Shown piece after piece: positions 19,081-64,000 of a DNA stretch of 64,000 nucleotides. The notes beneath the pieces are model-generated. The model saw only the letters and a program-made list of their open reading frames with translations. It was not told the DNA's origin and searched no databases. The stretch's first letter is position 1; the number at the start of each line of letters is the position of its first letter. The DNA comes from Candidatus Uhrbacteria bacterium (GTDB taxonomy: Bacteria; Patescibacteriota; Patescibacteriia; UBA9934): the NCBI GenBank assembly GCA_903827265.1, contig CAIKHN010000003.1, positions 24,392 to 88,391 on the forward strand, written 5' to 3'. The position numbers and the translations under genes are program-made.

Positions 19081-19089
19081 ATTCACGTC

Positions 19090-35830: not shown

Positions 35831-35849
35831 AATCATAACAAGTAAAAAT

Positions 35850-36245: not shown

Positions 36246-36249
36246 ACCT

Positions 36250-38416: not shown

Positions 38417-38451
38417 CAGGGCAGCGCTCTAACCAGTTGAGCTACCGACCC
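38375..38451 (-). tRNA. tRNA-Asp (anticodon GTC)
   Basis: Reverse complement GGGTCGGTAGCTCAACTGGTTAGAGCGCTGCCCTGTCACGGCAGAGGTTGCGGGTTCGAGTCCCGTCCGTCCCGCCA. It has a cloverleaf, a CTGTCAC anticodon loop and an encoded CCA. It is close to E. coli tRNA-Asp. Confidence 0.85.
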
Positions 38452-38607: not shown

Positions 38608-39060
38608 CTACTTGGTCGTCGCGGTGTCGGTGCCGGTATCGGTCCCGGTGTCGGCCGGGGGGTCACCGCACTCGCCACCATCCCATGCGATGATGCATCG
38701 GACGGTCAGCCCGGTCGCGAGGACGACCGGCTCCGTGGAGCTGGCGACGAGGTCGCTCTCGACCACCCAGTACGGGGCGCCATCCGCGGCCACCGACATC
38801 GCCCACTTGGACGGCTTCCCGTCCTTGTCCGCCCCGCGGACGATCCCTTCCGCCAGCACAGCTCGCGGGGTGGTTCCGTCGCAGTAGAAGAGCGGCGCCT
38901 TGCCGGAGGCGAGGTCGTCGGTCCACAGCAGGTGGCCGGCGGCGAACGTGGTCATCGTCACCCCTGGGGGCGGGGTGCACGAGGGGCCGGTGGCCTTGGG
39001 GATGTCGCCGTTGCAGGCAACGAGGAGGATGGTGAGAGGCAGCGGCGCGATGATGCGCAT
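38608..39060 (-). CDS. Lipoprotein in a high-GC (about 70%) patch with C-terminal DTGTDTGTDT repeat
   Basis: Start MRIIAPLPLTILLVAC (lipobox), GGAG SD. The overlapping plus-strand ORF is judged to be an antisense artefact of the high GC. Confidence 0.5.
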   Translation of the reverse strand: MRIIAPLPLTILLVACNGDIPKATGPSCTPPPGVTMTTFAAGHLLWTDDLASGKAPLFYCDGTTPRAVLAEGIVRGADKDGKPSKWAMSVAADGAPYWVVESDLVASSTEPVVLATGLTVRCIIAWDGGECGDPPADTGTDTGTDTATTK

Positions 39061-47216: not shown

Positions 47217-47561
47217 TTATTTCGCTGCGGAAACAATCTTTGCGAATACTTCTGGGTGCTTTTCTGCAACCTGCGCAAGGATCTTGCGGTCGATCGCGAT
47301 GTTAGACACTTTCAGCATGTTGATGAACCGTGAGTACGAAAGGCCGAGTTCATGAACAGCGGCGTTGATCTTCACAGTCCAAAGTGCTCGGAAGGTGCGC
47401 TTCTTGGCACGGCGGTCGCGGAATGCGTACACACCAGCCTTGAGCATTGCCGGACGAGCAAGACGGATCTTGCTCTTACGACCCCACTTGTAGCCTTTAA
47501 CACGGGCAAGCAGGTTCTTTCGGCGTTTTGTATGTTGGGTACCTCGTTTAACTCGTGGCAT
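47217..47561 (-). CDS. rplT: 50S ribosomal protein L20
   Basis: MPRVKRGTQHTKRRKNLL..., full-length bL20. Confidence 0.9.
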   Translation of the reverse strand: MPRVKRGTQHTKRRKNLLARVKGYKWGRKSKIRLARPAMLKAGVYAFRDRRAKKRTFRALWTVKINAAVHELGLSYSRFINMLKVSNIAIDRKILAQVAEKHPEVFAKIVSAAK

Positions 47562-47562
47562 A

Positions 47563-47763
47563 TTAGGAAAGATTGTATGGCATCATCGCTTTCAAGGCGC
47601 GACGGATGGTGACGCCAAAGGAGACGTCAGTGCGCTTGTTGCGCGTGGTGTTGCCGGATTCGCGGGAATTGAAGTGGCCTTGGCCAGCTTTTCGCTTCAC
47701 AACCTTACCCGTTCGGGTGATCCGGACGCGCTTGGTCATCGCTTTATGTGTCTTCATTGCCAT
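47563..47763 (-). CDS. rpmI: 50S ribosomal protein L35
   Basis: MAMKTHKAMTKRVRITRTGKV..., 66 aa bL35. Confidence 0.85.
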   Translation of the reverse strand: MAMKTHKAMTKRVRITRTGKVVKRKAGQGHFNSRESGNTTRNKRTDVSFGVTIRRALKAMMPYNLS

Positions 47764-47833
47764 ACTTGGGTTTCTAAGATGTGCGAAGGTTAGTGGAAAA
47801 CTGAGGTTTGGTCAAGGACAAGTGGGGAAGATT

Positions 47834-48391
47834 CTACGTTTGACGAGCAAGAATCATGTTCATGCGTCCATCGACTGCTTTTAATGGGCTTTCGACGCGA
47901 ATTGGGTAATGCGTTCCCAATTGCTTCACAAAGTCGTCAAATACGGCTCGGGCAACGTCTCCGTGGGCACGTTCGCGGCCTCGGAGGATCATTTCTACCT
48001 TTACCTTGTCGCCTTGTTCGAAGAACTTTGCTGCCTGCTCGACGCGGATCTGTAAGTCGCCGGAGCCGATGCGCATGGAAAGGCGGATACCCTTGATTTC
48101 CACTTCTTTGCTCTGCGCGCGCTGCTTTCGCATCTCCTTCTCCTTTTGGTATTTGAAATGGCTGTAGTTGGCGAACTTACACACCGGAGGCTCGGCTAAT
48201 GGTGAAACCTCGATAAGGTCCATGCCTTTTTCCCGAGCGAGTTCGATCGCTTTTACGGTGGCTATAACGCCGAGCGCATTGCCTTCGTCGTCAATAACTC
48301 GCACTTCTGGGGCGAGAATATTGTGGTTTGCCTTATATTCCTGAATTTCGAACTTCGGCTTTTGGAAACGGCGGTGGCGGTGAATGCGCAT
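47834..48391 (-). CDS. infC: Translation initiation factor IF-3
   Basis: IF3 N- and C-terminal domains (APEVRVIDDEGN...IRLSMRIGSGDLQIRV). The start is uncertain (IF3 often uses a non-ATG start); ATG 48391 is chosen, while the ORF track extends to 48433. Confidence 0.8.
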   Translation of the reverse strand: MRIHRHRRFQKPKFEIQEYKANHNILAPEVRVIDDEGNALGVIATVKAIELAREKGMDLIEVSPLAEPPVCKFANYSHFKYQKEKEMRKQRAQSKEVEIKGIRLSMRIGSGDLQIRVEQAAKFFEQGDKVKVEMILRGRERAHGDVARAVFDDFVKQLGTHYPIRVESPLKAVDGRMNMILARQT

Positions 48392-48454
48392 GGCAGTAGG
48401 GTTAAAGTTGCTGAAATGATAGACCAAAACCAAAAATTATGCTAGTATTTGCGC

Positions 48455-48853
48455 GGGCCTGACGGGTTTCGATACTCTTCGGATCCTCACAAATCACGCC
48501 GGAAGGGCACCATATTCCGAAATCCCGTGGTGCAACGAGATACTTGCAAACGCATTCTCAAAGGTGAAGGCAGCTATCGCTTCGGCGTTTAGCGTTCCTT
48601 CATTCTCATTGGTTACCGCCTAAGGGCCGCAACCCATCCACTTCGCAATGCCTCATAGCGGAGTTCGGGTGCAATATTATGAGACTATAGGCGTTCTCTT
48701 GTTCGCTCAGAGAACGTAACCCGTTGCAGCGAAATCGTGTCGATGATTCTTGTTCCGTCTTATCATCGCCCCGTACTTGACGGAACTGCGCGTGGAACAA
48801 ATTTGTTTGGTGAGGTGGGGTAGACGAGGGTTCAACTCCCTCCAGGTCCACCA
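48455..48853 (+). ncRNA. ssrA: tmRNA (ssrA)
   Basis: 5' GGGCCUG pairs with 3' CAGGUCC-A-CCA to give a tRNA-Ala-like acceptor stem with G3:U70. T-arm GGGTTCAACTCCC. Length is about 400 nt. smpB is 1.6 kb downstream. Overlapping protein ORFs are rejected. The tag reading frame was not resolved. Confidence 0.65.
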
Positions 48854-50983: not shown

Positions 50984-52033
50984 ATGACCACACGCAAAAT
51001 TGACGGAACGCCGGGGGTGAAGTCTATCGCTATTTCGAGCGGAACCATGTTTCGTGTTGTCATTATTGCTGCCGTTGCGGCGTTCCTGTACATGATTCGT
51101 GACGTTGTTGCTATGACGTTGGTTGCGGCGTTCCTTGCTTCGCTTATCGATCCATTTGCGGACATGTTTACACGATGGAGGATTCCACGCGCGCTTGCGG
51201 TGCTCGTGGTGTACGTTCTTGGTTTGGCGTTTTTTGTGCTGGTCACGCTCCTTATTGTTCCTCCGCTTCTGACGGAATTAAGCGAGCTTGCAACAGCGCT
51301 TTCACCGTTCATTGCTGGTGCAAGTGGATGGACGCAAGTAGATACGTTTTTTGCGGGCGTATGGAGCTCGAATATTGGCAGCATTATTTCGACGGTGCGC
51401 GACAGTGGAATTGTTGGTGCGTTTCCAAAAATCGCTGCAGTTGGTTCGTCGGCATTCGATGCCGCGTTGAGCGTTGGTGTTGTTCTCATTTTGGCGTTTT
51501 ACTTTGTTGTTGAGAAAAACGAGATGATTCGCGGCATTGGCATTGTTGCGCCGGCCGAGTATCAGCCGTTTGTGATGCACATTGCGCTGAAGGCTCGAGA
51601 GCAGATGGGAGTCTGGCTTCGTGGACAGCTTGCACTCATGGGATCAATCTTCGTGCTTATTTACGGTGCGCTTACGATTCTTGGCATTCCATACGCACTT
51701 GTTCTTGCGTTGCTCGCGGGCCTTTTAGAAATTATTCCGTTCGTTGGGCCAATGGTGTCGGCAATTCCTGCAATTGTTCTTGCGCTTGCGGTGTCGCCGC
51801 TTCATGCATTACTCACTGCACTTGCGTATTTAGTCATTCAACAGATTGAGGGGAATATTCTTGTGCCAAAAATCATGCAAAAGGTTGCGGGTATTAATCC
51901 TATCGTGAGCGTTCTTGCGGTCTTGATTGGCTGGCGTGTGGGCGGTATCGTGGGCGCGGTACTTTCGATTCCACTTGCAATGGCGGTTATGGTCTTTACA
52001 CACGATGTGTTTCATCCTAAAGAATCTCTATGA
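50984..52033 (+). CDS. AI-2E family transporter (PerM/UPF0118)
   Basis: 349 aa, 8 TMs. Conserved IQQIEGNILVPKIMQK motif. Confidence 0.7.
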   Translation: MTTRKIDGTPGVKSIAISSGTMFRVVIIAAVAAFLYMIRDVVAMTLVAAFLASLIDPFADMFTRWRIPRALAVLVVYVLGLAFFVLVTLLIVPPLLTELSELATALSPFIAGASGWTQVDTFFAGVWSSNIGSIISTVRDSGIVGAFPKIAAVGSSAFDAALSVGVVLILAFYFVVEKNEMIRGIGIVAPAEYQPFVMHIALKAREQMGVWLRGQLALMGSIFVLIYGALTILGIPYALVLALLAGLLEIIPFVGPMVSAIPAIVLALAVSPLHALLTALAYLVIQQIEGNILVPKIMQKVAGINPIVSVLAVLIGWRVGGIVGAVLSIPLAMAVMVFTHDVFHPKESL

Positions 52034-52431
52034 GTGACAACGACGTATCGCAGCGAAATTGGTTTCCGGTGATTGTTGGAGGATTAACGATTGTTCTTGC
52101 AATTGCATTTTATGCAAAGTTCCGTCCTGAAGATTTTTCAGGATTCATGCATCGCGACGTTGATGATCGATCGTCTGCGGAGTTGGTAGTGAATGAAGAT
52201 GGATATATCGCTGCCGTGAAAACGATCTTTACTGCCTACGACGCAAGTAAGAATGCGGGCGAGGCATACGATACGCTCATCCAGCTTCACGCTCCTGCGT
52301 CAATGAAACAGTTTCACATTGATTGCATTATTGCGTTAGGAAAACTTGTTGAAGGCGGCGCCACAAACACTGATGACGCGACGGCTCGATTCAATGCTAT
52401 TCACGCACAATACTCTTGGTTTAGCCTGTGA
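52030..52431 (+). CDS. Hypothetical membrane-anchored protein
   Basis: 133 aa with one N-terminal TM. Start overlaps upstream stop. Confidence 0.4.
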   Translation: MSDNDVSQRNWFPVIVGGLTIVLAIAFYAKFRPEDFSGFMHRDVDDRSSAELVVNEDGYIAAVKTIFTAYDASKNAGEAYDTLIQLHAPASMKQFHIDCIIALGKLVEGGATNTDDATARFNAIHAQYSWFSL

Positions 52432-53192
52432 TCCTTCTTCATCGCATCACACCGTTCGGCATTGCGTTCGTGAGTATCGCGTCGTTTGCGTCGCTGATTG
52501 CTTCGCCGTTCTTTGGTATGAAGTTATTAGTTCCAGCGATTGCGATTCTGGCGTTTTCATTTGCGCGATTGTTGTTATGGGAATTTCGTCGACCAGCATT
52601 TTGGGTGTTTTTAGGGACACCGATGTTGTTGTGGTGTTCGTCGCTGATTTTCTTTTTCTTTCTTGAAGACCCTGTAAGTAAATGGATTATCGCAACGACT
52701 GTGACGTTTGCAGTTGCGTTGTATGCCGAGAATGTCTTTACGTTTTATCATTTGCCGAGCGCATATCAGGCGTACGCTCTTGAGAATCTTTCTTTGGTGC
52801 TGTACGTGCTGAGCGCATTTTTCTTTACGAGTGGAGCGTTCGGTGCGCAGTTATTCTTGCTGTTGCCGGTATGGATTCCGATGCTTGTCGTGTGTGTTGC
52901 GGTGCTTCTTGCGACGGTTGCGGTGTTTTGGGTGAGTAAAATTGGATTTGAAACCGGGCGACCTTATGCGATTGTTGGCTCGATACTTATGGCCGAGTTG
53001 TACGGCGTGCTCTCGACGTGGCCAACAAGTTTTGTGACGAACGCGGCAACATTTGCGGTGTTGCTGTATGCGTTTCTTGTTCTTTCTCGCGCGAACGTTC
53101 TTGAGCGACTTACCAAAAAGTCTGTCATGCGGTCCGTGGCGTTTGTTGCTGTCCTTTTGATTATTATTCTCGGCTCTGCACGCTGGCTCTAA
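52428..53192 (+). CDS. Hypothetical polytopic membrane protein
   Basis: 254 aa, about 8 TMs. Start overlaps upstream stop. Confidence 0.4.
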   Translation: MILLHRITPFGIAFVSIASFASLIASPFFGMKLLVPAIAILAFSFARLLLWEFRRPAFWVFLGTPMLLWCSSLIFFFFLEDPVSKWIIATTVTFAVALYAENVFTFYHLPSAYQAYALENLSLVLYVLSAFFFTSGAFGAQLFLLLPVWIPMLVVCVAVLLATVAVFWVSKIGFETGRPYAIVGSILMAELYGVLSTWPTSFVTNAATFAVLLYAFLVLSRANVLERLTKKSVMRSVAFVAVLLIIILGSARWL

Positions 53193-53201
53193 TATTTTTC
53201 T

Positions 53202-54335
53202 ATGAACACCCCTTCGCACTATTGGTGGAACATGAGCAAGCTGTTACTCCTTGGCCTCACTGCGGGAGCAGGAGCAGGGATTGTTGCTGCGGTATGGACG
53301 TCGCGAGCGTTGGACGATTACGCCGCGTCGCTGCTCGCCGATCGTCAGTTACCGCAAGTTTCAACGGAGCATCCAACGCCAATTCCGGGAACGTATGAAG
53401 AAGCGCTTTCTCGAGTTCGCGAGAACGCAAAAACAGGAATCGCAACACTCATGCAGACGTCGACAGATAGTTTTGCGGCAAAAGCGTGGCTTACAGGCGA
53501 TAACGCTTTTGGATACGGCGCTGTTGTTAGTGACGACGGATGGGTTGCGGTTGATCGAAGCGTGCTTGAAGACGTCAAAAATCCACTGAAGGACGTTGAG
53601 GTGTGGATTGGTGGAAAACGATACACGGTACTTGCGGTTGTGAATGCTTCGCAGACGAGCGTTGCCATGATTCATACGAGCGCGACTGGCGTTGCGCCAC
53701 TTGGGTTTGCTGCGGCGAATGCGGTGCGTTCTGGTGAAATGATGTTTGCGGTTGACGGTGCTGGGGGAGTGTTACCAACAGCGGTTGCGGAGAGTGAGGC
53801 TGAAGTATTTTCCGGTGCACAGAACGCGGAAACATTCGCAACAGACTGGCTTCTTTCGTCGTCGGCGTTTGTGCGTTCCGGTCCGTTGTTGAATTCCGCC
53901 GGAGAACTTTCCGGGTTTGTTCGTGCATCAGATGGTCATGCGGTGCCGCTGCATCATGCGCTTCATGCGATTCGTACCATTGTGAAAACTGGAATTGATG
54001 CGGTGCCGCTGTTTGGCGCATATACCGTCGATCTTGCTCGTGCGTATAATATTGATGCTGATCTACGCCAAGGATTGCGCGCTGGAGCATTGGTGTTTCA
54101 TCCTGATCCATCGATGCATGCAACGGTGCGCGGTGGGCCTGCGTCAGAGGCGGGTTTTGCAAGCAAGGATATTATTCTCGCAGTCGATGGGGAATCGGTT
54201 ACGGACGCAACGTCGCTGTCGGAAATTCTTGCTGAGTATGATCCGGGAGATGTCGCACGCTGCACCGTGCTTCGCGCTGGCCAAACGATGACGATTTCCG
54301 TAACGCTGAGCGATATATCGAAGCTGGTATACTAA
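53202..54335 (+). CDS. PDZ-domain protein with trypsin-like (HtrA/S1C-like) N-terminal domain
   Basis: 377 aa with an N-terminal TM. C-terminal PDZ (GLRAGALVFH...DIILAVDGESVTD...). I could not fully confirm the catalytic triad. Confidence 0.5.
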   Translation: MNTPSHYWWNMSKLLLLGLTAGAGAGIVAAVWTSRALDDYAASLLADRQLPQVSTEHPTPIPGTYEEALSRVRENAKTGIATLMQTSTDSFAAKAWLTGDNAFGYGAVVSDDGWVAVDRSVLEDVKNPLKDVEVWIGGKRYTVLAVVNASQTSVAMIHTSATGVAPLGFAAANAVRSGEMMFAVDGAGGVLPTAVAESEAEVFSGAQNAETFATDWLLSSSAFVRSGPLLNSAGELSGFVRASDGHAVPLHHALHAIRTIVKTGIDAVPLFGAYTVDLARAYNIDADLRQGLRAGALVFHPDPSMHATVRGGPASEAGFASKDIILAVDGESVTDATSLSEILAEYDPGDVARCTVLRAGQTMTISVTLSDISKLVY

Positions 54336-54339
54336 CGCT

Positions 54340-54984
54340 ATGGCATACCGATACGCACAACTTTCGCCGTTATTGAGTGGGTGGGTCACTATAGTGCTTG
54401 CTGGAGTGATCGGCATGGCACTTGCGGTTGGCTTGTCGTTTTTGCGTCCACTCGAATACAGCTCGACGACGCAAATTCTCATTACTCAAGAACTCGGTGC
54501 GGTTGATGCGTATACCGCGAGCCGTTCTGCGGAGCGTATTGCTGACGGCTTGGCGAGCGCAGTGTATTACTCAACATTTTTCCAGAAGGTGATGGAGTCC
54601 GGATACGGAATTGATGCAACATATTTTTCCGATGACGCGATAACCCTTCGAAAGCAATGGCAAAAAACAGTAGAGGCAACGGTGTCGCGAAGCAGCGGAT
54701 CGTTATCTATTACCGCGTACCATACCGATGTCGATCAGGCAAAGAAAATCGCGCAAGCTGTTGCGTATGTGTTGACGAACGAAGGATGGACGTACACGTC
54801 TGGTGGAAATATTACGGTGCAAGTTGTCGATGACCCGTTGAACTCTCGATACCCCGTTCGTCCGAATTTATTGGTGAACGGATGTTCTGGTTTGGCGCTT
54901 GGTCTTCTTGGTGGCGCCGGATACATCATGATCGCCGCAGAACGCACACGTCGCCGACATCAGTTTATGCATGACGAGGATTAA
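54340..54984 (+). CDS. Wzz/chain-length-determinant-like membrane protein
   Basis: 214 aa. TMs at both the N- and C-terminus with a periplasmic alpha/beta region between them. Ends in GCSGLALGLLGGAGY. Confidence 0.35.
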   Translation: MAYRYAQLSPLLSGWVTIVLAGVIGMALAVGLSFLRPLEYSSTTQILITQELGAVDAYTASRSAERIADGLASAVYYSTFFQKVMESGYGIDATYFSDDAITLRKQWQKTVEATVSRSSGSLSITAYHTDVDQAKKIAQAVAYVLTNEGWTYTSGGNITVQVVDDPLNSRYPVRPNLLVNGCSGLALGLLGGAGYIMIAAERTRRRHQFMHDED

Positions 54985-55801
54985 ACCTCTCCCCCTTACG
55001 AAGGGGGAGTCGGATGGGGTCCTTGAACTAATTCTTGGAAGGGGGGGTGCGGGAGGGACGAAAACGTTGGGAGAGTATGGGTGTTTGATTTTAAAAGGGG
55101 TGTTTTGTTAACGCAACTCATTTGCATTAAGGAATCGCTGGTTGGTTTTGGTGACGTGCAAGGAAGCTGATGGCGCTGTACGCAATTACCGATGATGTAT
55201 TTTTGAGTTTGAAGCGATCATTTCTGAATTTCCGATTCAGATCGCGTTGTGACGCGAAGTTTAAAAGGGTCAAAAAACGACAGTAGTGTTTCAAAATGAG
55301 GATACCGACCCGGACGATTCACCTCCCCCCGACCCCCTCCTTCGTAAGGAGGGGGAGATTCTTAGTGAATCAGGGGTCCCTGTTGATAGATTCTTGACGC
55401 TTGCGTCTGCTTTTGGTTCCCTTTGCTCACGAAAACCCCTTGAGGGGACCCTACGGAACGGTTGTGACGCCTCCTCCTCGTTGCAATTTGTCACCATAGG
55501 GTCTCCTGAGGGGGTTTTATTTTGGCCATTTTCGGCTTGCTGCGTCGCAAATTCGCGCGACGTACCGAGAAGTACGCCTTGCGAATTATTTCTCTAATCT
55601 TAATAAACACTTGACTTTTTTGGTGTTTTTTGGTATGATGATCTGTCCTTGAATAAAGGATTCCGAGTGGAAAGGGCCTGTATGTAGTAGCTTTCTGTTC
55701 TTCAGTAGTTTGGTGTTCTGGGTGCTCCCTCCAGCATCCGGTTGACGCCAAACTTCTGAAGCGCAGAATCCTCTGCGCCAGCGCTCACCCTCGGAGTAAC
55801 C

Positions 55802-56719
55802 ATGCTCGCCCTTTTCCTCTCGACCGCTCTCGCCGATGACGCCGCCGTCACCACCCCCGATCCGACCGACCCCACGGCGCAGACCACGGCCCTCTCGGGC
55901 CCGGCCTTGACATGGTACGTCCAGAAGGCGGAGGAGAAGCCGGCGTGTCCGGCCCCGGCGCCCGTTGTTAAGCACCACAAGCGCAAGCACGTGGTGGCCT
56001 CGACTCCCGTGGCCCCGGTGTCCGACCCGGTCCTGCCCGTCGTGAAGCCCGATCCGATCCCTCCGGTTCCCGTGACCCCCGCGGTCACGCCGGCCACCGA
56101 GAACGACGACAGCGACCTCGCCGTCAAGTTCTCGGAGGACTGGGAAGAACTCGATCACTTCGGTGACAACGAGAAGGAGGAGGCCTCCGAGCCCCCGCCG
56201 GCCGAGCGCGAAGAACCCACGTTCTCCCCGAACCGAGCCCAGCTCGGCATCGGGGCGATGGTGGTCATCGCGCCGCCGCTGCCTTCGGCGCAAGCCTGGG
56301 CCGCGGACCAGCTCAATGCCTTCGGGCGGTACGAGTTCGGCGTCAGCAACGGCTTCTCGGTGGGGTTCGAAGCGATGGCTGGCTACGGCATCAGCGCGGA
56401 CGCCACGAGCTTCCGCGCCGCCCCCGTCCTCGCCTGGGACATCGGACCCCGCACCGGCCTCACGGTCGGCGCAGGGCCTTCGGTCCTGTGCGAGCGTGCT
56501 TTCACCGCTGGGCCTCTCTGCTCGGTCACCCGCACGGGTGGCTTCGCCGAGATGGGCATCTCCGTCCAGGCGGCCGGCCCCGTCGGCCTCGAGTTCCTCC
56601 TCGGTGGCGGCTACGACGTCATCGAAAGCGTGAAAGATGGACCCGGCGCGATCGGCAACGGCTACGCGGGGATGCGGCTCTTCTTCGGGAGGGTCGGCAC
56701 CGGCGAAACCGTGGAGTGA
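55802..56719 (+). CDS. Secreted protein with Pro-rich linker and beta-barrel-like C-terminal domain (high-GC segment)
   Basis: Signal peptide MLALFLSTALA. TTGACT-18-TATGAT promoter at 55611-55640 and a GGAG SD. The longer minus-strand ORF is low-complexity antisense. Confidence 0.5.
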   Translation: MLALFLSTALADDAAVTTPDPTDPTAQTTALSGPALTWYVQKAEEKPACPAPAPVVKHHKRKHVVASTPVAPVSDPVLPVVKPDPIPPVPVTPAVTPATENDDSDLAVKFSEDWEELDHFGDNEKEEASEPPPAEREEPTFSPNRAQLGIGAMVVIAPPLPSAQAWAADQLNAFGRYEFGVSNGFSVGFEAMAGYGISADATSFRAAPVLAWDIGPRTGLTVGAGPSVLCERAFTAGPLCSVTRTGGFAEMGISVQAAGPVGLEFLLGGGYDVIESVKDGPGAIGNGYAGMRLFFGRVGTGETVE

Positions 56720-56791
56720 CGCAGTACGGTTCGGCTGGGAGGGAAGAGGGTAAAACCTCGACTCTCCCGGCCGAACGCCCAACCCTACACA

Positions 56792-56820
56792 TTGACATTT
56801 TCCCAAATTTCTGCTATAGT
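56792..56820 (+). promoter_or_regulatory. Consensus sigma70 promoter TTGACA-17-TATAGT (copy 1), followed by a 172-nt conserved leader
   Basis: Exact -35 and -10 hexamers with a 17-nt spacer. It is duplicated at 57681-57709. Confidence 0.6.
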
Positions 56821-56992
56821 ATTTTGTTCACAATTGATGCCTTTTCAAGTCCAGTCCATGCAAGCAGTGAAGCGAAATCTTCACTTCTGTCATGGTCTGG
56901 GTCTTACTCCCGACGCCGCTTAATTCTGAGCGCGTGAGGGGTGTCCCTCGATCAACGTTCTCGTCCGAAACCCCAAGGCCATAGGAGCCATC

Positions 56993-57571
56993 ATGTCCAA
57001 GATCGTCCCGTTCTTCCTCCTCGTCCTCGCCACCGCCTGCACGACCTACACCGACAACCAGGATCAGCCCGGGTTCCAGGACAAGGTCGAGGGCGCGGGG
57101 ATCGTGCCCCCCGACTTCGGCTTCAAGCCCTACGACGACGGCATGTTCCTCTGGTCCAGCCAGAGCGCCCCGGACATCGCGAACCCGAACCAGGTTCTCG
57201 GGACCCGCGGTGCCGATCGCGCCCGCAACTGGGTGTGGGATCGCACGAACGTCAGCATGTTCCCCCTCCTCGAAGGGAGCATGGCGGTGGCCTTCGGTGG
57301 CCAGCTCGCGTTCGACAACACCTACCTCTTCACCTTCGCCGCGGACTACGCGGTGCCGGGTGAGGACGAGGGGTGGGCGATCGACAACGAGAGCACCGAG
57401 GAACAGGAGTACGTCTTCTACCGCTCCGACGAGTGCGGTTACCCGGTGGTGGACATCTGCCTCCACGTCGACAAGGACGGCAAGCCCGGTCCCGACGACT
57501 GCGACGGCATGTACGTCGCCCCCGACCCCTGCCCCAACGGGTACGTCGAGGAGGAAGACACCGGCGAGTGA
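56993..57571 (+). CDS. Lipoprotein (variable-body family, copy 1)
   Basis: MSKIVPFFLLVLATAC lipobox, AGGAG SD, high GC, Cys-rich C-terminus. Confidence 0.6.
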   Translation: MSKIVPFFLLVLATACTTYTDNQDQPGFQDKVEGAGIVPPDFGFKPYDDGMFLWSSQSAPDIANPNQVLGTRGADRARNWVWDRTNVSMFPLLEGSMAVAFGGQLAFDNTYLFTFAADYAVPGEDEGWAIDNESTEEQEYVFYRSDECGYPVVDICLHVDKDGKPGPDDCDGMYVAPDPCPNGYVEEEDTGE

Positions 57572-57680
57572 TCGCCCGGTCGCGTGACCGATTCACGCAC
57601 CTTACGTCCCGGCATTCTTCCAACACACGGTTGGTGAATGTCCGGGGCGTTTGCATTTTGGAAAAACAGCAAGAAACATA

Positions 57681-57709
57681 TTGACATTTCCCCAAATTTC
57701 TGCTATAGT
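57681..57709 (+). promoter_or_regulatory. Consensus sigma70 promoter TTGACA-17-TATAGT (copy 2)
   Basis: Identical hexamers and spacing to copy 1, followed by a 95%-identical leader. Confidence 0.6.
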
Positions 57710-57881
57710 ACTTTGTTCACAACTGATGCCTTTTCAAGTCCAGTCCATACAAGCAGTGAAGCGAAATCTTCACTTCTGTCATGGTCTGGGTTTCACTCCC
57801 GACGTCGCTTAATTCTGAGCGCGTGAGGGGTGTCCCTCGATCAACGTTCTCGTCCGAAACCCCAAGGCCATAGGAGCCATC

Positions 57882-58583
57882 ATGTCCCAGAACCTCGTCC
57901 CGTTCTTCCTCCTCGTCCTCGCCACCGCCTGCTCCATCGACACCGTGCCGCCGACCACCGGTAGCAATGCCGGCGAATCCCAGTACACCTGGGGCACGCC
58001 CGGCACCAGCACCGGCAACAACTCGTCCTCGGACGAGGACACCGGCGAGGCGGCCGACACCGCGGACACCTCCGACACCGGTGACAGCGCCGAGGTGATC
58101 GACACCGCGGACACGGCCGACATCGACACCGGTGTCGAGGCCATCACGGCCACCGTTTACATCTGGCCGAAGGCCAAGTGGAACGAGTCCGTCTCCATGT
58201 CGGGGTGCCCGACCGTGTCCTTCCTCACCCCCGCGAACATCAGCGAGGGCGAAGGGTTCGACGGAACCATCGCCGACACGGATAGCAGCTGCGGCTACGT
58301 CCAGGCCACGATCACCTACATCCCCGGCCAGGTCATCACGACCGAAGCCAAGTGGAATGATGGCGTCCGCGACCGGTTCCTCGCTGAGAAGGGCAACGTG
58401 GTCAACTCGTTGTCCACCGCGGTCCTCATCGGCTACAGCAACGGCTGTCTCGCCGAGTTGGCAATCGACTCCACGGGAACGGACACCGCGGAGGGCAGTG
58501 CCTACTGGCACAGCAACTGGGACAGCTCGGGTGGGGAGCTCTACCTCCACACCCCGACCGACACCAGCGACTGTTCGTTCTAG
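57882..58583 (+). CDS. Lipoprotein (variable-body family, copy 2) with DTADTxDTGD repeats
   Basis: MSQNLVPFFLLVLATAC shares its signal peptide with copy 1. The mature domain is unrelated. Confidence 0.6.
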   Translation: MSQNLVPFFLLVLATACSIDTVPPTTGSNAGESQYTWGTPGTSTGNNSSSDEDTGEAADTADTSDTGDSAEVIDTADTADIDTGVEAITATVYIWPKAKWNESVSMSGCPTVSFLTPANISEGEGFDGTIADTDSSCGYVQATITYIPGQVITTEAKWNDGVRDRFLAEKGNVVNSLSTAVLIGYSNGCLAELAIDSTGTDTAEGSAYWHSNWDSSGGELYLHTPTDTSDCSF

Positions 58584-58928
58584 TCCAAGCCTTCCGCGGC
58601 ACGCGCGGTCGGCTCGCTCACACCTCATCTGGCTTCGGCTGGGTGAGGTGTTCGCATTTGAGAGCACTCGTTCTCTTTTATTTCGAGCAAGTGCATAATT
58701 TTCGACCAGTTTCGGTGCGCGACGAAGGCGGGAGCGTCAAGACGTACGTTGCGGTACGTCGTCGATCACGCCGAGGACGCAAGCCGAAAGTGGGCAAAAT
58801 TATGCGCTTGCTTCTTTACTTTTCCCCAATTTTCCGCTAATATTCCTTGTCCCTCAAGTGGGGGAATGACACACTGTCATTAGGCCACCTGGCCTCACGT
58901 TCCTGAAACCTTCCCGTTCGGAGTTCCC

Positions 58929-61253
58929 ATGAACCGCTCCTTCGTTCTCACGCTTCTCGTTTCCTTCGGCTGTGCGGATCCCGTCGGCAAGTGCACGCAA
59001 CGCAACGACGACGGAAGCATGTCCATCGTGGCGGAGTGCGTCAGCAGCAATCGCTCCCTGATCGTCGACACCGGCGACACGGGCGACTCCGGAACCATCG
59101 ACAGCACCGACTCGGATTCGGGCGGTGACAGCGATTCGGTTCCGGACACCGCCGACACCGGCGATACTGCGGATACGTCCGACACCGCTGTCATCGAAAC
59201 CGGCGACTCGGATACCGACACCGCGGACACGTCTGACACCGGCGACACCGGCGACACCGCGGACATCATCGATGTGGACGGCGACGGCTTCGCGGCCGAC
59301 GTCGACTGCGACGATACGGATGCCGGAATCAACCCCGATGCCGTGGAAATGTGCGACAACGTCGACAACAACTGCGACGGCGTCATCGACAATGATGCCG
59401 CGGATCGGACGACGTACTACGTCGATGCCGACAGCGATGGCTACGGCGATGTCTCCCTCAGCGTGTTGTCGTGCGACCCGGTTCCGGGTTCCGTTCTCGA
59501 CGGGACGGACTGCGACGATAGCGACTCGACCGTTTATCCGTATGCCGTTGAAGATTGCACGGACACCGTCGATCTCAACTGCGATGGCTCCGTCGGCGCG
59601 TCTGATCTGGACGGCGATGGAACGATCGCCTGCGAGGATTGCGACGACGTCGATGCGTCCGCGTATCCCGGTAACACGGAAACGTGCGATGGTGTCGACA
59701 ACGACTGCGACAAAACCGTCGACAACGATGCTTCGGACGCGCTCATCTGGTACGCCGACAGCGACGGTGACAGCTACGGCGATGCATCTGTGACCGACGT
59801 TGCGTGTTCGGCCTCGGCCGGGTACGTGGCGGACAACGCGGATTGCAACGACACTCGCGCCGATGTGAATCCTGGCGAGACGGAGCTGTGCGATGGAAGC
59901 GCCGTGGACGAGGACTGCAACGGTCTCGTGAACGACGCGGATCCGGGCATGGATCCGTCCGGGCTGTTCTACCTCTACGAGGACATGGACGGCGACGGGT
60001 ACGGCGACGTGGCGACCGAAGCGCAGTACTGTGAGTCGCCCGATTCCTCGTGGATCGGCGATAGCTCGGACTGCGACGACGCGGATGCCGGAATCAACCC
60101 CGGTGCCGTCGAGTGGTGCGACGGTGTGGATGACGACTGTGACGGCGCGGTTGACGAAAGCGGATCCGCGGGCGAAAGCACGTGGTACGCCGACGTGGAC
60201 AGCGACGGCTACGGCGATGTGTCGAGCTTCGAGAGCGCGTGCGATCAGCCGATCGGCTTCGTCGCCGACAGTGCGGACTGCGATGACGGGGACGCCTCGG
60301 CGTATCCCGGCGCCGCGGAGATCGTGGCGGACGGCATCGACCAGGACTGTGACGGAAGCGACCTCGCCAATCCGGATGCGGATAGCGATGGGTACGACGA
60401 CGTCATCTACGGCGGTACGGACTGCAACGACTCGGATGCGAGTGTCAGCCCCGGCGTCATCGAGTCCTGCGACAGCATCGACAATGATTGCGACGGGGAC
60501 GTCGACGAAAGCGGATCCGCGGGCGAAAGCACGTGGTACGCCGACGTGGACAGCGACGGCTATGGTGACGTGATGTCTTCGGAAGACGCCTGTGATCAGC
60601 CGATCGGCACCGTGAGCGACAGCTCGGACTGCGACGACACGGATACGACGGTGTACCCCGGCGCCGCGGAAATTGTGGCGGACGGCATCGACCAGGACTG
60701 CGACGGCGCGGACAGCACGCTGCCGGACAGCGATGGCGATGGCGACGCGGACGTCACCGACTGCAACGACGCCGACGCCACGGTGTATACCGGGGCAACG
60801 GAAGTTGAGGGCGACGGGATCGATAATGATTGCGACGGTGTCGAGCTGGTGTACGACGAGGACTTCGGGACCACGACCGGCCCCTGTACGGTGGGGAGCT
60901 TCGTCCGTTCGGACGGTGGTTCCATTCATCAGATGGGATCGTGCGTGATCCTCATCCAGGAAGGTGGAAGCCTCACGGCTCCGAGCGTTTCGGACGACGT
61001 CACCCTCACGGGGCTGACGGTCGGACAGACGTACACCTTCCAGTGGGATGTGGAGAACCAGTTCTCGGCAACGGTGACGATTGTCGCAGACGTGAACCGT
61101 GGAGCCCCTGACACGGTCACGATCCTCCGTGGAGGATCCGATGTCCTCGAAGTGACGTGGGCTGCGACGAGCACGTCCACCACCGCCCGCGTCTGGACCA
61201 CTGGCACGAGTTACTACGACGGAATGCTGGATGGCTTTACGGTCACCCGGTGA
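58929..61253 (+). CDS. Lipoprotein with about 10 MopE-type putative metal-binding repeats (CDGxDNDCDG...DE)
   Basis: 774 aa. LLVSFGC lipobox, DTGDTGD tracts, and repeats such as DCDDTDAGINPDAVEMCDNVDNNCDGVIDND and DADSDGYGD. GC is about 67%. The antisense 691-aa ORF is rejected as low-complexity. Confidence 0.65.
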   Translation: MNRSFVLTLLVSFGCADPVGKCTQRNDDGSMSIVAECVSSNRSLIVDTGDTGDSGTIDSTDSDSGGDSDSVPDTADTGDTADTSDTAVIETGDSDTDTADTSDTGDTGDTADIIDVDGDGFAADVDCDDTDAGINPDAVEMCDNVDNNCDGVIDNDAADRTTYYVDADSDGYGDVSLSVLSCDPVPGSVLDGTDCDDSDSTVYPYAVEDCTDTVDLNCDGSVGASDLDGDGTIACEDCDDVDASAYPGNTETCDGVDNDCDKTVDNDASDALIWYADSDGDSYGDASVTDVACSASAGYVADNADCNDTRADVNPGETELCDGSAVDEDCNGLVNDADPGMDPSGLFYLYEDMDGDGYGDVATEAQYCESPDSSWIGDSSDCDDADAGINPGAVEWCDGVDDDCDGAVDESGSAGESTWYADVDSDGYGDVSSFESACDQPIGFVADSADCDDGDASAYPGAAEIVADGIDQDCDGSDLANPDADSDGYDDVIYGGTDCNDSDASVSPGVIESCDSIDNDCDGDVDESGSAGESTWYADVDSDGYGDVMSSEDACDQPIGTVSDSSDCDDTDTTVYPGAAEIVADGIDQDCDGADSTLPDSDGDGDADVTDCNDADATVYTGATEVEGDGIDNDCDGVELVYDEDFGTTTGPCTVGSFVRSDGGSIHQMGSCVILIQEGGSLTAPSVSDDVTLTGLTVGQTYTFQWDVENQFSATVTIVADVNRGAPDTVTILRGGSDVLEVTWAATSTSTTARVWTTGTSYYDGMLDGFTVTR

Positions 61254-61322
61254 ATGCTCGAGCCCCTGGCCCGCTTCGGCGGTGTCCAGGGGCTCTTCAC
61301 GTTCTCCTGATATACTTCACGC

Positions 61323-62855
61323 ATGATCCCGAATTTCCGTTCGTTATATCAGGCGTCTGAAGAGCAAACGCGTCTTGCATTCTTTGGTTTTACTGCGCTT
61401 CTTGCGCTTGGGTTCCTTGGAACGATTTTCTTTTCTCCAACGCTGGTTGTCGCGACAGTTCTCGGTGTTCTTGCTGTCGCATTCGCGTTTGCTCGTCCAA
61501 CGTGGGCATTGTGTGTGTTTGCCGTGTACCTTCCGTTCGAACCATTTTTGTTAAAGTGGGTTGCGGATGATGTGTATGTATTTGCACGATACGGGTCAGA
61601 GCTTGTGGTGTATCTCTTGCTTGCGGTGGTGTGTTGGCGAATGCTGACGGGAACCATCGTGTTTAAACGCACGCCACTTGATGTTGCATTTTGTGTGGTG
61701 GTGTTTCTTGCGCTTGTGTCTGTTGTGATGAACGCCGTGTCTCCGTGGGTTGCACTGTTGGGGTTGCGCCAGATATTCCGATTTGTTTTGCTTTTCTTTA
61801 TTGTTGTTTACCTCGCACCATCAAAAAATATTGTTCGAAAACTGCTGATCACCATGAGTATTGTTGTTGCGATTCAAGCAGGACTCGGCTATGCACAGCG
61901 TGTGATTGGAGAACCGCTTGATTCATTCTTGTTGCCGTCGGCGCAACGCACGCTTGGCGGACTGCAGCTGACGTCTGGAACAACAGAATTTTGGGATCCT
62001 GGTCAGCGGGTGTTTGGGACGCTAGGAAGGTACGATCAGTTGGGAACATTCATGGCGTTCTTTCTTGTGCTTCTTGTGGCGTTTTTGTATGAGCGATCGC
62101 TCTCGCCGTCAGAAGAATTACCGGCGTGGGCTATTCTCCTTTTCTCGCTTCCTGTTGTTGGTCTTGCATACTCGCGCTCTGCTTGGTTTGGCTTTGCGCT
62201 CGCATTTTTCTTTATTGCACTCATCATCAAGCGCGATAAACGTGTGCTCGCGGCGTCAGTTGCAGGTGGAATATTCCTTGTGGGCTATTTAATTGTTTCT
62301 GGACTTGCGGTGAATCAACTTCAAGATTCCGCGAATCAAACATTTGCGAATCGTTTCTTTGAAGCGTTCTCTGTTGCACGATGGCAAGGTGAATATTTTG
62401 GTCTTGGGCGCGTGTATTGGATGGCGCAAACCGTGTGGACTGTTGTTCCGTCGTCTCCGCTTTTTGGTCATGGACCAGGAACGTATGGCGGGGGAGCGGT
62501 TGCTGCGTTAGGGAATACAAAATTATACGATGAACTTGGCTTGCCGTTTGGTGTGTACGGCACCGAAGGATATATCGACAACAATTGGTTTAGCATGTGG
62601 GGCGAGCTTGGAACGGTTGGGCTTGGGGCGTATCTTGTGATGTTCGTGACACTCTTTTCGGCATGTATGCGAATATACCGTGAGTCGAAAGATCCTGAAG
62701 TTCGCGCACTCGCGCTTGGGGTTGCTGCGGCAATGCTCGCGGTGTCCGTCAATGCACTTCTCGCAACGTATCTTGAAGCGCGAACTCTTGCGCCGTATTT
62801 GTGGATGACAGGTGGTATGGTAGTCGCATTCGGAAAGAAAGAGGGGATTGTTTAG
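61323..62855 (+). CDS. O-antigen ligase/polymerase-like (Wzy/WaaL family) polytopic membrane protein
   Basis: 510 aa, at least 10 TMs with a large periplasmic loop. GC is native (about 50%). Confidence 0.5.
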   Translation: MIPNFRSLYQASEEQTRLAFFGFTALLALGFLGTIFFSPTLVVATVLGVLAVAFAFARPTWALCVFAVYLPFEPFLLKWVADDVYVFARYGSELVVYLLLAVVCWRMLTGTIVFKRTPLDVAFCVVVFLALVSVVMNAVSPWVALLGLRQIFRFVLLFFIVVYLAPSKNIVRKLLITMSIVVAIQAGLGYAQRVIGEPLDSFLLPSAQRTLGGLQLTSGTTEFWDPGQRVFGTLGRYDQLGTFMAFFLVLLVAFLYERSLSPSEELPAWAILLFSLPVVGLAYSRSAWFGFALAFFFIALIIKRDKRVLAASVAGGIFLVGYLIVSGLAVNQLQDSANQTFANRFFEAFSVARWQGEYFGLGRVYWMAQTVWTVVPSSPLFGHGPGTYGGGAVAALGNTKLYDELGLPFGVYGTEGYIDNNWFSMWGELGTVGLGAYLVMFVTLFSACMRIYRESKDPEVRALALGVAAAMLAVSVNALLATYLEARTLAPYLWMTGGMVVAFGKKEGIV

Positions 62856-62877
62856 ATTTTGTCTTCGCCCCTTCGTT

Positions 62878-62915
62878 ATTGCGAGGAAGGTAATCCCGAC
62901 GAAGCAATCTAGGTG
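62878..62915 (+). repeat. 38-bp direct repeat, copy 1, flanking the GIY-YIG gene
   Basis: attgcgaggaaggtaatcccgacgaagcaatctaggtg is identical to 63278-63315. The repeat has an internal palindrome (attgc...gcaat). Confidence 0.7.
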
Positions 62916-62916
62916 T

Positions 62917-63210
62917 ATGGATGATCGACAATTTTTTGTATATATTCTTTCGAATGTTTCAAATTCGGTTTTGTATATCGGAGTGACAAATAATCTTCCA
63001 AGGCGAATCGAGGAACATCGATCGGGTTTTGTAGAGGGTTTTACTAAAAAGTATCATTGCCATAAGTTAGTCTATTACGAGGTCCTCGAAACAGCGTATG
63101 ATGCTATCAGTCGAGAAAAGCAATTAAAGGGAGGATCGAGAAAGAAAAAAGAAGCGCTTATTGTATCGCTGAATCCGACCTGGAAGGACCTTGTGAGTGA
63201 TTTAATCTAG
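62917..63210 (+). CDS. GIY-YIG nuclease family protein
   Basis: 97 aa. FFVYILSNVSNSVLYIGVTNNLPRRIEEHR is the GIY-YIG core. The ORF track starts at 62848, but ATG 62917 follows the repeat. Confidence 0.7.
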   Translation: MDDRQFFVYILSNVSNSVLYIGVTNNLPRRIEEHRSGFVEGFTKKYHCHKLVYYEVLETAYDAISREKQLKGGSRKKKEALIVSLNPTWKDLVSDLI

Positions 63211-63277
63211 ATTGCTTCGTCGAACGATTACGTTCTTCTCGCAAAGACTGAGTTAAAGATTGATCAGATCTTCAGTC

Positions 63278-63315
63278 ATTGCGAGGAAGGTAATCCCGAC
63301 GAAGCAATCTAGGTG
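63278..63315 (+). repeat. 38-bp direct repeat, copy 2
   Basis: Perfect copy of 62878-62915. A degenerate inverted copy lies at 63207-63245 and overlaps the GIY-YIG stop codon. Confidence 0.7.
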
Positions 63316-63342
63316 ATACGAGAACAATAAAGGGAGGCTAAT

Positions 63343-64000
63343 ATGAAAATCATCCACGTCCATAAATATTTTCATTCTCGCGATGGCGCAAGCCGGTATG
63401 AACGAGGACTGATGCGGCTTCAGGAAGAAGCTGGGCATGTTGTTGCTCCGTTTGCAATGCACGACGAGAGAAATGAACCAACGCCGTGGAGCGAATATTT
63501 TGTTTCAAATCTTGAAACGAAACACGTTGCCTTTGGCTTGAACGCGATTCGTCAATTTTTCCGCGCGGCGTGGTCCAGAGAAGCTGAGAAGAAATTTACG
63601 CAACTTCTTGACGTGTTCCGACCAGATATTATTCACGTACATAATATTTACACGCATATTTCGCCATCGATTCTTGCGGTTGCAAAACGGAGAAATATTC
63701 CTGTCGTCATGACTGTTCATGATTACGCGCTGTTGAGCGCGAATTATTCGCTGTGGGATGCATCGAACATGCGTTCTATGGATTTGCGCGATATTGGTGT
63801 TCTCGCAACGGCACGAACGCGATTTATTAAAGGATCGTTTCTTGCGACGTTGCTTCTTGAACTTGTGTTAAAAGCGCATCACGCGAAGCGACTGTATGAT
63901 GGCGCGATTGCCGAGTACACAACGTACTCGCAGTTTGTGAAAGATGTGATGGTTGGCGCGGGATTTGATGCAAAGAGAATCTCTGTGCTCGGCGCGTATG
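63343..64000 (+). CDS. Glycosyltransferase (GT4-like N-terminal domain), 3' partial
   Basis: AAGGGAGG SD then ATG. MKIIHVHKYFHSRDGASRYE...IIHVHNIYTHISPSIL. The ORF continues past the window end. Confidence 0.6.
   Translation, partial: MKIIHVHKYFHSRDGASRYERGLMRLQEEAGHVVAPFAMHDERNEPTPWSEYFVSNLETKHVAFGLNAIRQFFRAAWSREAEKKFTQLLDVFRPDIIHVHNIYTHISPSILAVAKRRNIPVVMTVHDYALLSANYSLWDASNMRSMDLRDIGVLATARTRFIKGSFLATLLLELVLKAHHAKRLYDGAIAEYTTYSQFVKDVMVGAGFDAKRISVLGAY

Follow-up and report, generated by a model that had tools for sequence, protein, structure and literature searches.

A GC-rich cluster of putative envelope-protein genes with a maintained synonymous codon dialect in a Candidatus Uhrbacteria genome

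A window of 64 kb (64,000 nt) from one genome of Candidatus Uhrbacteria, a lineage of the Patescibacteria or candidate phyla radiation (CPR), was analyzed together with about ten related loci, and the related contigs and loci compared with the window are labeled L003 to L021. Within the window, the segment at 55650-61260 has a GC content of 62.9%, compared with 49.5% in the remainder, and the 101 other intervals of 5.6 kb have a mean of 49.5% (sd 2.6) and a maximum of 52.3%. It is occupied by four plus-strand open reading frames (ORFs), here called genes A to D, which reach a GC content at third codon positions (GC3) of 0.87, 0.93, 0.92, and 0.80, respectively, compared with about 0.48 in background genes. 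The coding sequences have GC contents of 70% (A), 66% (B), 65% (C), and 64% (D), and the segment as a whole falls below them because its four intergenic spacers have only 50-55%. An earlier note on this DNA, made from the sequence alone, had described the segment as 65-70% GC in a genome of about 50% GC; the second value agrees well with the rest of the window, and the first applies to the coding sequences (64-70%) but not to the entire segment.

Gene A (55802-56719, plus strand; 305 aa) encodes a Sec signal peptide, a helical, acidic linker that is rich in Pro, Ala, and Lys and contains a conserved Cys, and a C-terminal predicted beta-barrel (aa 145-295). The AlphaFold2 model of this last part has eight antiparallel strands with a mean confidence score (pLDDT) of about 90. 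The strands are amphipathic, with a hydrophobic face alternating with a Gly/polar face, and the last of them ends in ...GMRLFF, followed by a tail of 10 residues. The best Foldseek matches in the PDB are NspA (E = 7.8e-6) and then OpcA, OmpA, Ail, OmpW, OmpX, and PagL, all of which are outer-membrane barrels of 8-10 strands, and the target-normalized TM-scores are 0.58 for NspA, 0.61 for OmpX, and 0.59 for Ail. Protein A is thus predicted, on the basis of the structural model, to be an OmpA/OmpX-like 8-stranded barrel of the outer-membrane type, in line with the beta-barrel-like protein proposed earlier. No Pfam or NCBIfam family matched it at E <= 0.01, and no known outer-membrane protein family was recognized by sequence. 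Family A is rare, with only 9 members found among 1.84 billion representatives by an exhaustive HMMER search, and a protein-pattern scan of metagenome contigs gave no confirmed match.

The other three genes encode proteins with lipoboxes, as do the orthologs of these lipoproteins, so that the lipoprotein assignment of the earlier note was confirmed. Gene B (56993-57571, plus strand) encodes an acidic lipoprotein of 192 aa with the lipobox ...LVLATAC, for which no relative was detected in the other lineages (blastp, E <= 1e-3). Gene C (57882-58583, plus strand) encodes an acidic lipoprotein of 233 aa with the same lipobox motif and a DTG/DTA tract at aa 53-70, and it is most closely related to gene C of L008 (35% identity, E = 8e-34). 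Gene D (58929-61253, plus strand) encodes a lipoprotein of 774 aa (lipobox ...LLVSFGC), in which a D/T-rich linker with a D-T-G tract (aa 90-111) leads into nine Cys/Asp repeats of the MopE type. Its C-terminal domain is all-beta and of unknown fold, and the AlphaFold2 model of this domain (pLDDT 40) was unusable. The repeats match PF11617 in 9 stretches with 267 bits against a cut-off of 27 (E = 4e-81), and both these repeats and the acidic D-T-G tracts of C and D had been correctly recognized in the earlier note, which also drew attention to a similar high-GC lipoprotein gene beside tRNA-Asp at 38608-39060. This gene (minus strand, monocistronic, 150 aa, GC3 0.84-0.91) encodes the lipobox ...ILLVAC and a C-terminal DTGTDTGTDT, and it is counted here as a fifth representative of the class. 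The five proteins are all acidic, with a net charge of -183 in D.

Genes A to D are positioned between two conserved anchors with ordinary codon usage. The left anchor is the gene for a Wzz-like chain-length determinant (54340-54984, plus strand; PF02706, GC3 0.50), which lies directly left of the island and is 89-90% identical in L008-L010, the ones among L007-L010 that include Wzz. The right anchor encodes an O-antigen ligase/polymerase-like membrane protein of the Wzy_C family (61323-62855, plus strand; PF04932, GC3 0.46), referred to as Wzy below. The acidic nature of the proteins, together with their position between Wzz and Wzy, suggests a function of A-D at the cell surface, probably in Ca-dependent adhesion or host contact.

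The public annotation of this locus is on the wrong strand. In L003, an identical contig, the gene call placed four minus-strand ORFs of 406, 212, 303, and 691 aa in the place of A-D; these spurious ORFs, called at 4264-9607 of L003, correspond to 55586-56806, 56828-57466, 57717-58667, and 58854-60929 of the window. What keeps them open is solely the avoidance of TTA, CTA, and TCA, the complements of stop codons, in the sense genes. The antisense ORFs were rejected as true genes, since the Pfam match, the lipoboxes, the AlphaFold2 model, and the substitution periodicity among orthologs (position 3 > position 1 > position 2) all favor the plus-strand frames, which in addition have Shine-Dalgarno and ATG signals downstream of promoters. 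As a consequence of the wrong-strand calls, the true A-D proteins are missing from large protein databases. The 774-aa D protein is not on record in the protein database, and a query with B, C, and the 38.6-kb lipoprotein found no match, not even to the proteins themselves, among 5.8 billion clusters, so that the lack of database homologs for B and C is partly an artifact of gene calling. Another case of this kind may lie between ftsA and ftsZ (17394-19185), where the plus-strand ORFs 17589-18266 and 18313-19080 (GC3 0.70-0.73) overlap a minus-strand ORF of 334 aa and the public calls of the region are on the minus strand (324 and 144 aa).

A chimeric assembly, which the earlier note had considered, was rejected. 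L003 (ERZ27313425), an independent contig of 67 kb from another sample, is 99.976% identical over 51323-64000 (12,678 bases), including both GC transitions. The Logan contigs L004 and L005, which are single-run builds, span the left transition and cover 55527-56890 at 100% identity, and 14 further contigs or places are similar around the locus. Chimerism is therefore excluded as far as the sequence data reach.

A scan of species-representative genomes with the Wzy_C protein yielded seven related loci, mostly titled Candidatus Uhrbacteria or Patescibacteria, and revealed that the locus is old, native, and conserved. The gene order Wzz-A-B-C-D-Wzy is also present in L007, L008, L009, and L010 (Wzy 82-93% identical) and in L021 (71%), and L006 contains a fragment of the cluster; the Wzy proteins of L006 and L007 are 93% identical to that of the window. 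Reduced clusters were observed in L012 (Wzy 77%) and in the 39%-GC genome L011 (Wzy 52%), which retain D-like or A-like genes. No integrase, tRNA, or direct repeat was found at the borders at 55.6 kb and 61.3 kb; the separate 38.6-kb gene does adjoin tRNA-Asp and a serine recombinase. The database comparison of the 774-aa protein that had been proposed as a check gave the L007 ortholog (71%) as its closest match, and the other matches listed were 36-50% identical and confined to the repeats; the few of these with a source name are labeled Deltaproteobacteria or Pseudomonadota. The identity of D to its orthologs is 66-71% in L007, 57% in L008, 47% in L009, and 46% in L010. No foreign homologs of A, B, or C were found, and viral contigs gave only weak repeat matches of 24-34% identity. 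With the same cluster and the same GC3 contrast between Wzz and Wzy in at least six other, distinct Uhrbacteria lineages, no mobility signatures at the borders, and no close donor, the segment is not a recent island of horizontal gene transfer (HGT) as had been suggested, although the MopE-repeat gene may have come from a foreign source long ago. The closest relative of the locus, L007 (CAYROW010000023.1, a 13-kb contig), sits in a metagenome-assembled genome (MAG) titled "uncultured Gammaproteobacteria bacterium"; as its Wzy is 93% identical to that of this Uhrbacteria locus, L007 is probably mis-binned, perhaps owing to its GC-rich half.

The compositional anomaly is almost purely synonymous. 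Across 25 island genes, GC contents at the first, second, and third codon positions are 0.62 (GC1), 0.49 (GC2), and 0.88 ± 0.06 (GC3, range 0.75-0.97), compared with 0.59, 0.46, and 0.52 ± 0.03 in 14 flank genes, and in L011 the GC3 contrast is 0.75 versus 0.32. GC1 and GC2 thus barely differ from the flanks, and amino-acid composition was rejected as the source of the GC excess. GC rises at the ATG, with a GC3 of 0.82 already in codons 2-21, and the bias spans the gene from the first to the last codon; in a meta-profile, GC remains high for about 60 nt past the stop codons and then falls to 0.43-0.55 in the spacers. Codons ending in A or T are nearly banned, and TTA, CTA, and TCA have a usage of 0.00 in the sense genes. 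In the island, Pro is encoded by CCC at 0.46 and by CCA at 0.00, and GAG reaches 0.64. The dialect is near-identical in five lineages (Pro CCC 0.46-0.53, CCA about 0, Leu CTC 0.52-0.74, Thr ACC 0.55-0.65), and the switch to CCC, which accounts for 2% of background Pro codons, 0 of 12 in the ribosomal-protein and infC genes, and 46% in the island, has been kept in seven lineages.

Several comparisons indicated that this dialect is maintained and does not fade with time. We examined the four-fold sites at residues that the window shares with distant orthologs of A-C. In A, third-position identity equals the chance expectation (e.g., 0.43 versus 0.45, and 0.39 versus 0.35), and in B and C it scatters around chance with small counts of 21-48 sites; nevertheless, GC3 at these sites is 0.8-1.0 in every lineage. 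The signal at four-fold sites is retained in Wzy, Wzz, and the PDZ protease (0.42-0.50 versus 0.26), in which GC3 is about 0.5. The number of synonymous substitutions per synonymous site (dS) in the flanks is about 0.8-1.0 between lineages, a distance that, in a rough calculation with an amelioration model, should substantially erode a GC3 of 0.9 under the genome's own regime. Synonymous saturation of A-C at a GC3 of still 0.8-1.0 therefore means that the dialect is kept or renewed and is not residual. In a parsimony-polarized test, D displayed an excess of GC-to-AT changes (46 versus 10), which is the outcome that saturated GC-rich outgroups, biasing parsimony toward "GC ancestral," would produce in any case, and the Wzy control gave about 1:1. 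In addition, the preference for C at the third position is tied to the coding strand irrespective of the replication strand, which argues against a mutational cause at the level of replication or region.

Other genes of the window help to delimit the dialect. Within the window, the infC-rpmI-rplT operon (47217-48433, minus strand) is the sole indicator of which codons translation prefers; it has a GC3 of 0.56-0.70, C-ending codons in 0.71 of two-fold pyrimidine boxes versus about 0.40 in the background, and C in 0.39 of four-fold boxes. This operon shares the preference for C-ending codons with the island, but not the use of CCC, GAG, or NNG. Giant surface proteins of 609, 3137, and 2476 aa are encoded at 1475-12727 and 39299-46729; they contain T4SS-pilin (type IV secretion system pilin), Big_5, VWA, DUF7483, and SH3 domains, and a 234-nt tandem repeat array is present at 42572-43999. 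Their GC3 is ordinary (0.47-0.51), indicating that export alone does not confer the dialect. The giant proteins fused to T4SS-pilin domains, together with DUF5667 nearby, fit a CPR genome.

The promoters of the class are exceptional in the window. Both strands of the whole 64 kb were scanned for sigma-70 promoters that agree with the consensus in at least 10 of the 12 positions, have 17 nt between the two boxes, and include an extended -10 TG, and only four sites passed. Three of them precede A (55611), B (56792), and C (57681), and the fourth (39150) belongs to the 38.6-kb lipoprotein gene. Promoter A (55611-55639, plus strand; TTGACT-17-TATGAT, extended -10 TG) is kept in all seven lineages with gene A. 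Promoter B (56792-56820, plus strand) has the form TTGACA-17-TATAGT with TG, that of the 38.6-kb lipoprotein (39150-39122, minus strand) has the form TTGACC-17-CATAAT with TG, and the promoter and leader of C (57681-57881, plus strand) form part of a 94%-identical copy of the B-type promoter/leader/signal-peptide module. Promoter D (58815-58843, plus strand; TTTACT-17-TAATAT) is weaker, and the ribosome-binding-site context of D, CGGAGTTCCCATG (58919-58931), is that of the 38.6-kb lipoprotein gene. The promoters of A-C are kept in every lineage, as is the TTTACT-17-TAnnAT of D, which always has the lowest GC3 of its locus. These promoters do argue for real, expressed genes, as the earlier note held; they are not thereby shown to be of the native type that it described, and such near-consensus sites number only four in 64 kb.

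Each gene is preceded by a leader of about 150-240 nt, and the leaders are more conserved than the proteins. Leader A (55646-55801, plus strand) begins with a conserved 5'-terminal hairpin (55646-55660) and contains a covarying hairpin (55700-55761) with an invariant CCCUCC loop at 55727-55732. In the predicted basal stem, 55661-55670 pairs with the Shine-Dalgarno GGAG (55793-55796), a 5' UUCCGAG pairing with the Shine-Dalgarno region, and the whole is predicted to fold into a rod with a minimum free energy of -78.7 kcal/mol (z = -8.1). In the core hairpin of 27 pairs, both partners have changed in 13 and the paired fraction of cells is 95%, values that were reached by 0 of 500 shuffles. Leader A is still recognizable in L014 and L016, in which protein identity is down to 29-30%. 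A search with the leader DNA pattern found only four contigs, of which L017 is the same as L015, L018 is the L010 contig, and L019 and L020 together represent one new lineage. The second leader type follows promoter B (promoter plus leader, 56792-56992, plus strand); it is about 170 nt long and contains the hairpin GUGAAG-N-CUUCAC followed by UUCUGYCA (56867-56884), and a conserved hairpin GUGAAG-N-CUUCAC-UUCUGCCA is common to the B and C leaders. At the other end of the transcript, a GC-rich, terminator-like hairpin without a clear U-run follows gene A (56728-56776, plus strand), with similar hairpins 3' of gene A in L014 and L021.

A candidate small RNA was identified between Wzz and the promoter of A (55391-55518, plus strand). 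Its hairpin (55431-55518) ends in a U-run and has an invariant, anti-Shine-Dalgarno-like apical loop, CCUCCUCCU (55469-55480), which might base-pair with the GGAG sequences of genes in the island. The element is 85-93% identical in L006, L008, L009, and L010, above the neighboring coding DNA, and is inverted in L021; RNAalifold predicted 35 pairs, 5 of them with compensatory changes. No Rfam 15 family matched 55000-61400 even at E <= 1, and in the whole window only the transfer-messenger RNA (tmRNA) and tRNAs were matched. The spacers also contain an intergenic repeat of about 70 nt in both orientations (55515-55595, 13601-13678, and 13583-13653/16182-16252), which is found as well in the spacers of L008, L009, L010, and L012, including sites inside the islands of other lineages. 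The spacer that divides C from D holds a distinct palindromic element (58693-58805).

Behind these conserved 5' modules, the proteins turn over in a cassette-like manner. They also diverge far more quickly than the flanking proteins, D falling from 66% to 46% identity across L007-L010 where Wzz keeps 89-90% in L008-L010. Between the window and L007, the nonsynonymous rates (dN) of A and D in conserved blocks are 2-3 times that of Wzy, while dS is not above Wzy and dN/dS is 0.1-0.4. The mature domains of B and C and the N-terminal half of A are entirely different between the window and L006/L007. Slot B is occupied by at least three families without detectable similarity (the window's own; that of L007, L010, and L021; and that of L008 and L009), and slot C groups the window with L008 and L007 with L010, so that the relationships in both slots conflict with those of Wzy. 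In addition, L007-L010 have a distinct C-type leader at the C slot, compared with the B-type in the window. The occurrence of unrelated mature domains behind conserved 5' modules indicates domain exchange at these modules. Devices for variation within the genome were rejected, as 55.6-61.3 kb contains no silent cassettes, invertible or inverted repeats, G-quadruplex (G4) motifs, homopolymers, or simple-sequence tracts.

With moderate confidence, we favor the interpretation that this is a native, hypervariable, and very highly expressed envelope-protein locus, in which the dialect would be kept by expression-linked selection on synonymous sites. Genes A-D each have their own promoter, long structured 5' leader, and 3' hairpin and would be transcribed separately, and their products would probably be the most abundant surface proteins of the cell, strongly and durably expressed. 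Selection on synonymous sites would favor the stability and longevity of the mRNA as well as translation efficiency, and thereby GC-ending codons, and longevity might be obtained by fewer AU-rich cleavage sites together with the 5' and 3' hairpins. The fast diversification of the proteins may be accounted for by swapping of the mature domains in slots B and C through recombination at the leader/signal-peptide modules. A number of observations weigh against this interpretation. The ribosomal-protein and infC genes use CCA in 7 of 12 cases and CCC never, and prefer GAA over GAG, which rules out plain tRNA adaptation as the sole cause of the dialect, with its CCC and GAG usage. CPR bacteria are generally thought to be slow-growing, with weak selection on codon usage. 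The dialect also closely resembles the genome-wide usage of L013, a 64%-GC Patescibacterium, and the replacement of B and C domains between close lineages makes import a live alternative, which would also explain the lowest GC3 in D, the more vertically inherited gene.

Recurrent import is accordingly the main rival to selection in place, and we consider it unlikely. In this view, a cassette site would be refreshed repeatedly with alleles that come from relatives of high GC content in the same clade (Patescibacteria at about 65%, such as L013, the genome-wide codon usage of which equals the island dialect) or from another, unsampled high-GC pool. The conserved leader/signal-peptide modules could act as recombination anchors in this process; at a Wzy identity of 93%, the N-terminal half of A and the mature parts of B and C are completely unlike those of L006/L007, with alleles incongruent with Wzy, and the low GC3 of the most vertically inherited gene, D, is what partial amelioration predicts. 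However, every family-A member examined is located behind the same Uhrbacteria-type promoter and leader and between mid-GC spacers, and none is in a uniformly high-GC context. The L013 lipoproteins are not homologous to B or C, and B, C, and the 38.6-kb lipoprotein have no database match, although genes in high-GC genomes should be called correctly. Moreover, GC3 did not drop while D and the C-terminal part of A diverged along with the genome between the window and L007. GC-biased gene conversion, a process invoked for recombining genes across many bacteria, might likewise act through intense homologous recombination at a hypervariable locus. The 94% copy of the leader module from B to C and the mosaic alleles are signs of recombination, and the GC enrichment is common to unrelated families in the same slots. 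We nevertheless judge this mechanism improbable, because the enrichment is restricted to third positions of coding sequences, the converted leader module and the spacers have a GC content of 43-55%, and GC1 and GC2 hardly shift despite fast protein evolution; in addition, C is preferred on the coding strand whatever the replication strand, and the separate monocistronic gene at 38.6 kb has the same dialect.

A dialect gated by rare codons or tRNAs (CCC, GCC, CTC) was also considered, in which slow translation would aid Sec or lipoprotein export, or a conditional tRNA set would be required, as in the dependence of TTA codons on bldA in Streptomyces, an example of reliance on a conditionally available tRNA. 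The switch to CCC in seven lineages, the export of every class member, and the sequestration of the Shine-Dalgarno of A in a very stable predicted leader, which implies translational control, are consistent with such gating, and if it were true, the synthesis of surface proteins would be coupled to the physiological state. Its probability appears low, as the near-consensus promoters and stabilizing hairpins suggest maximal and not throttled output, C-ending two-fold codons are preferred in translation genes too, and other exported proteins, namely the giant surface and TSP3 proteins, have ordinary GC3. Recent transfer across phyla, with a Myxococcota-like host or prey as one conceivable source, is highly improbable, and so is a chimeric contig. 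The codon usage does resemble the pattern of high-GC diderms, the predicted barrel of A is of a diderm type, and MopE repeats are most abundant in proteins labeled Deltaproteobacteria or Pseudomonadota, but this explanation is at odds with the reproduced junctions, the synteny in relatives, the borders free of integrase, tRNA, and direct repeat, and the homology searches, in which A, B, and C were without foreign homologs and the foreign matches of D were limited to its repeats. A bolder interpretation, which is speculative and rather doubtful, would regard the locus as an envelope-gene "codon-dialect regulon," with a private GC-ending code that includes CCC, a codon banned elsewhere in the genome, and is kept for more than 1 synonymous substitution per site, and with a barrel that anchors the cell in the outer membrane of a host. 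The barrel of A would then be tethered by a coiled-coil/proline-rich stalk and accompanied by D as a Ca-binding MopE lipoprotein, and the dialect, the leader with its CCUCC loop, and the candidate small RNA would together gate protein synthesis. If this were true, the dominant surface proteins of these organisms would be missing from databases through wrong-strand calls.

The remaining features of the window are mainly of other kinds. A low-GC block (40-47%) at 27254-38451 ends at tRNA-Asp (38375-38451, minus strand) and contains genes for a 1970-aa Cap4-nuclease/NACHT ATPase of the anti-phage type (27254-33166, minus strand) and for a serine recombinase of the large type (36779-38416). The block probably represents an integrated defense island. 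At the edge of this block, the 25440-26600 patch, the GC content of which was correctly given as 60% in the earlier note, contains the minus-strand ORFs 25523-26212 (GC3 0.76) and 26229-26495 (GC3 about 0.76). Neither ORF has a lipobox, a Pfam match, or a strong promoter; lacking the lipobox and the promoter, they are not members of the lipoprotein class. Directly after Wzy, a GIY-YIG nuclease gene (62848-63315) is flanked by a 41-nt direct repeat (62875-62915/63275-63315, 98% identical) and looks like a small mobile insertion; it is absent there in L007 and L010, in which a glycosyltransferase gene follows Wzy instead. The tmRNA gene (48455-48853, plus strand) has an unusually long predicted tag of 25 aa, ANAFSKVKAAIASAFSVPSFSLVTA.

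Literature searches found no description of such a phenomenon, which is not proof of novelty. The locus indicates that a compositional island should not be equated with recent HGT by rule, since a GC jump of 13-20 points can be old, native, and at the codon level, and it provides a test case for the maintenance of GC3 in bacteria, whether by selection, biased conversion, or gene flow. The proteins are probably major surface proteins of an uncultured CPR lineage, and a predicted barrel of the outer-membrane type is unexpected in a presumed monoderm, as CPR bacteria are thought to lack an outer membrane. In addition, wrong-strand calling of such genes in mid-GC CPR genomes may be systematic. The locus also comprises three undescribed, covarying RNA elements with anti-Shine-Dalgarno-like loops, namely two leader types and the candidate small RNA.

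Comparison with known systems places the locus between several of them. It resembles the horizontally acquired genomic islands and their amelioration, reportedly described by Lawrence and Ochman in 1997, in its sharp compositional anomaly and foreign-looking codon usage, but differs in being syntenic in all relatives examined, in having no mobility genes, border repeats, or donor, and in showing no amelioration despite synonymous saturation, with an anomaly that stops at every stop codon. Gene D is 36-50% identical over its repeats to many proteins of 880-1350 aa related to MopE and matching PF11617 from MAGs of the Myxococcota/Deltaproteobacteria type, and, like PF11617 repeat proteins, it is very acidic and predicted to be lipoprotein-anchored. 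Its N- and C-terminal parts, however, are specific to Uhrbacteria orthologs, and it has no C-type lectin or fibrinogen domains. Against MopE* of Methylococcus capsulatus (2VOV), only residues 4-52 align, so that D matches the N-terminal Cys/Asp motif but not the copper site with its His/kynurenine ligands. The vls/vlsE locus of Borrelia is a variable surface-lipoprotein locus that is markedly GC-richer than its AT-rich genome. The island is similar to vls as a surface-lipoprotein locus with a long-standing compositional contrast and recombination-driven variability, and unlike vls, it has no silent cassette array, inverted repeats, G4, or simple-sequence tracts, and its variation is seen between lineages. 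In Escherichia coli, ompA and lpp are genes for abundant envelope proteins with extreme codon bias and strong promoters, and the long 5' untranslated region of ompA reportedly has a 5'-terminal hairpin that stabilizes the mRNA, a finding ascribed to Emory, Bouvet, and Belasco in 1992. Unlike in these genes, the bias of the locus is a blanket avoidance of A- and T-ending codons (GC3 0.88 versus 0.52) that is partly contrary to the ribosomal-protein genes, the proteins are hypervariable, the organism is a CPR bacterium, and the high expression is putative. Like ompA and lpp, on the other hand, the locus combines an 8-stranded barrel and lipoproteins with near-consensus promoters, a long leader that starts in a 5'-terminal hairpin, and the strongest codon bias of its genome region.

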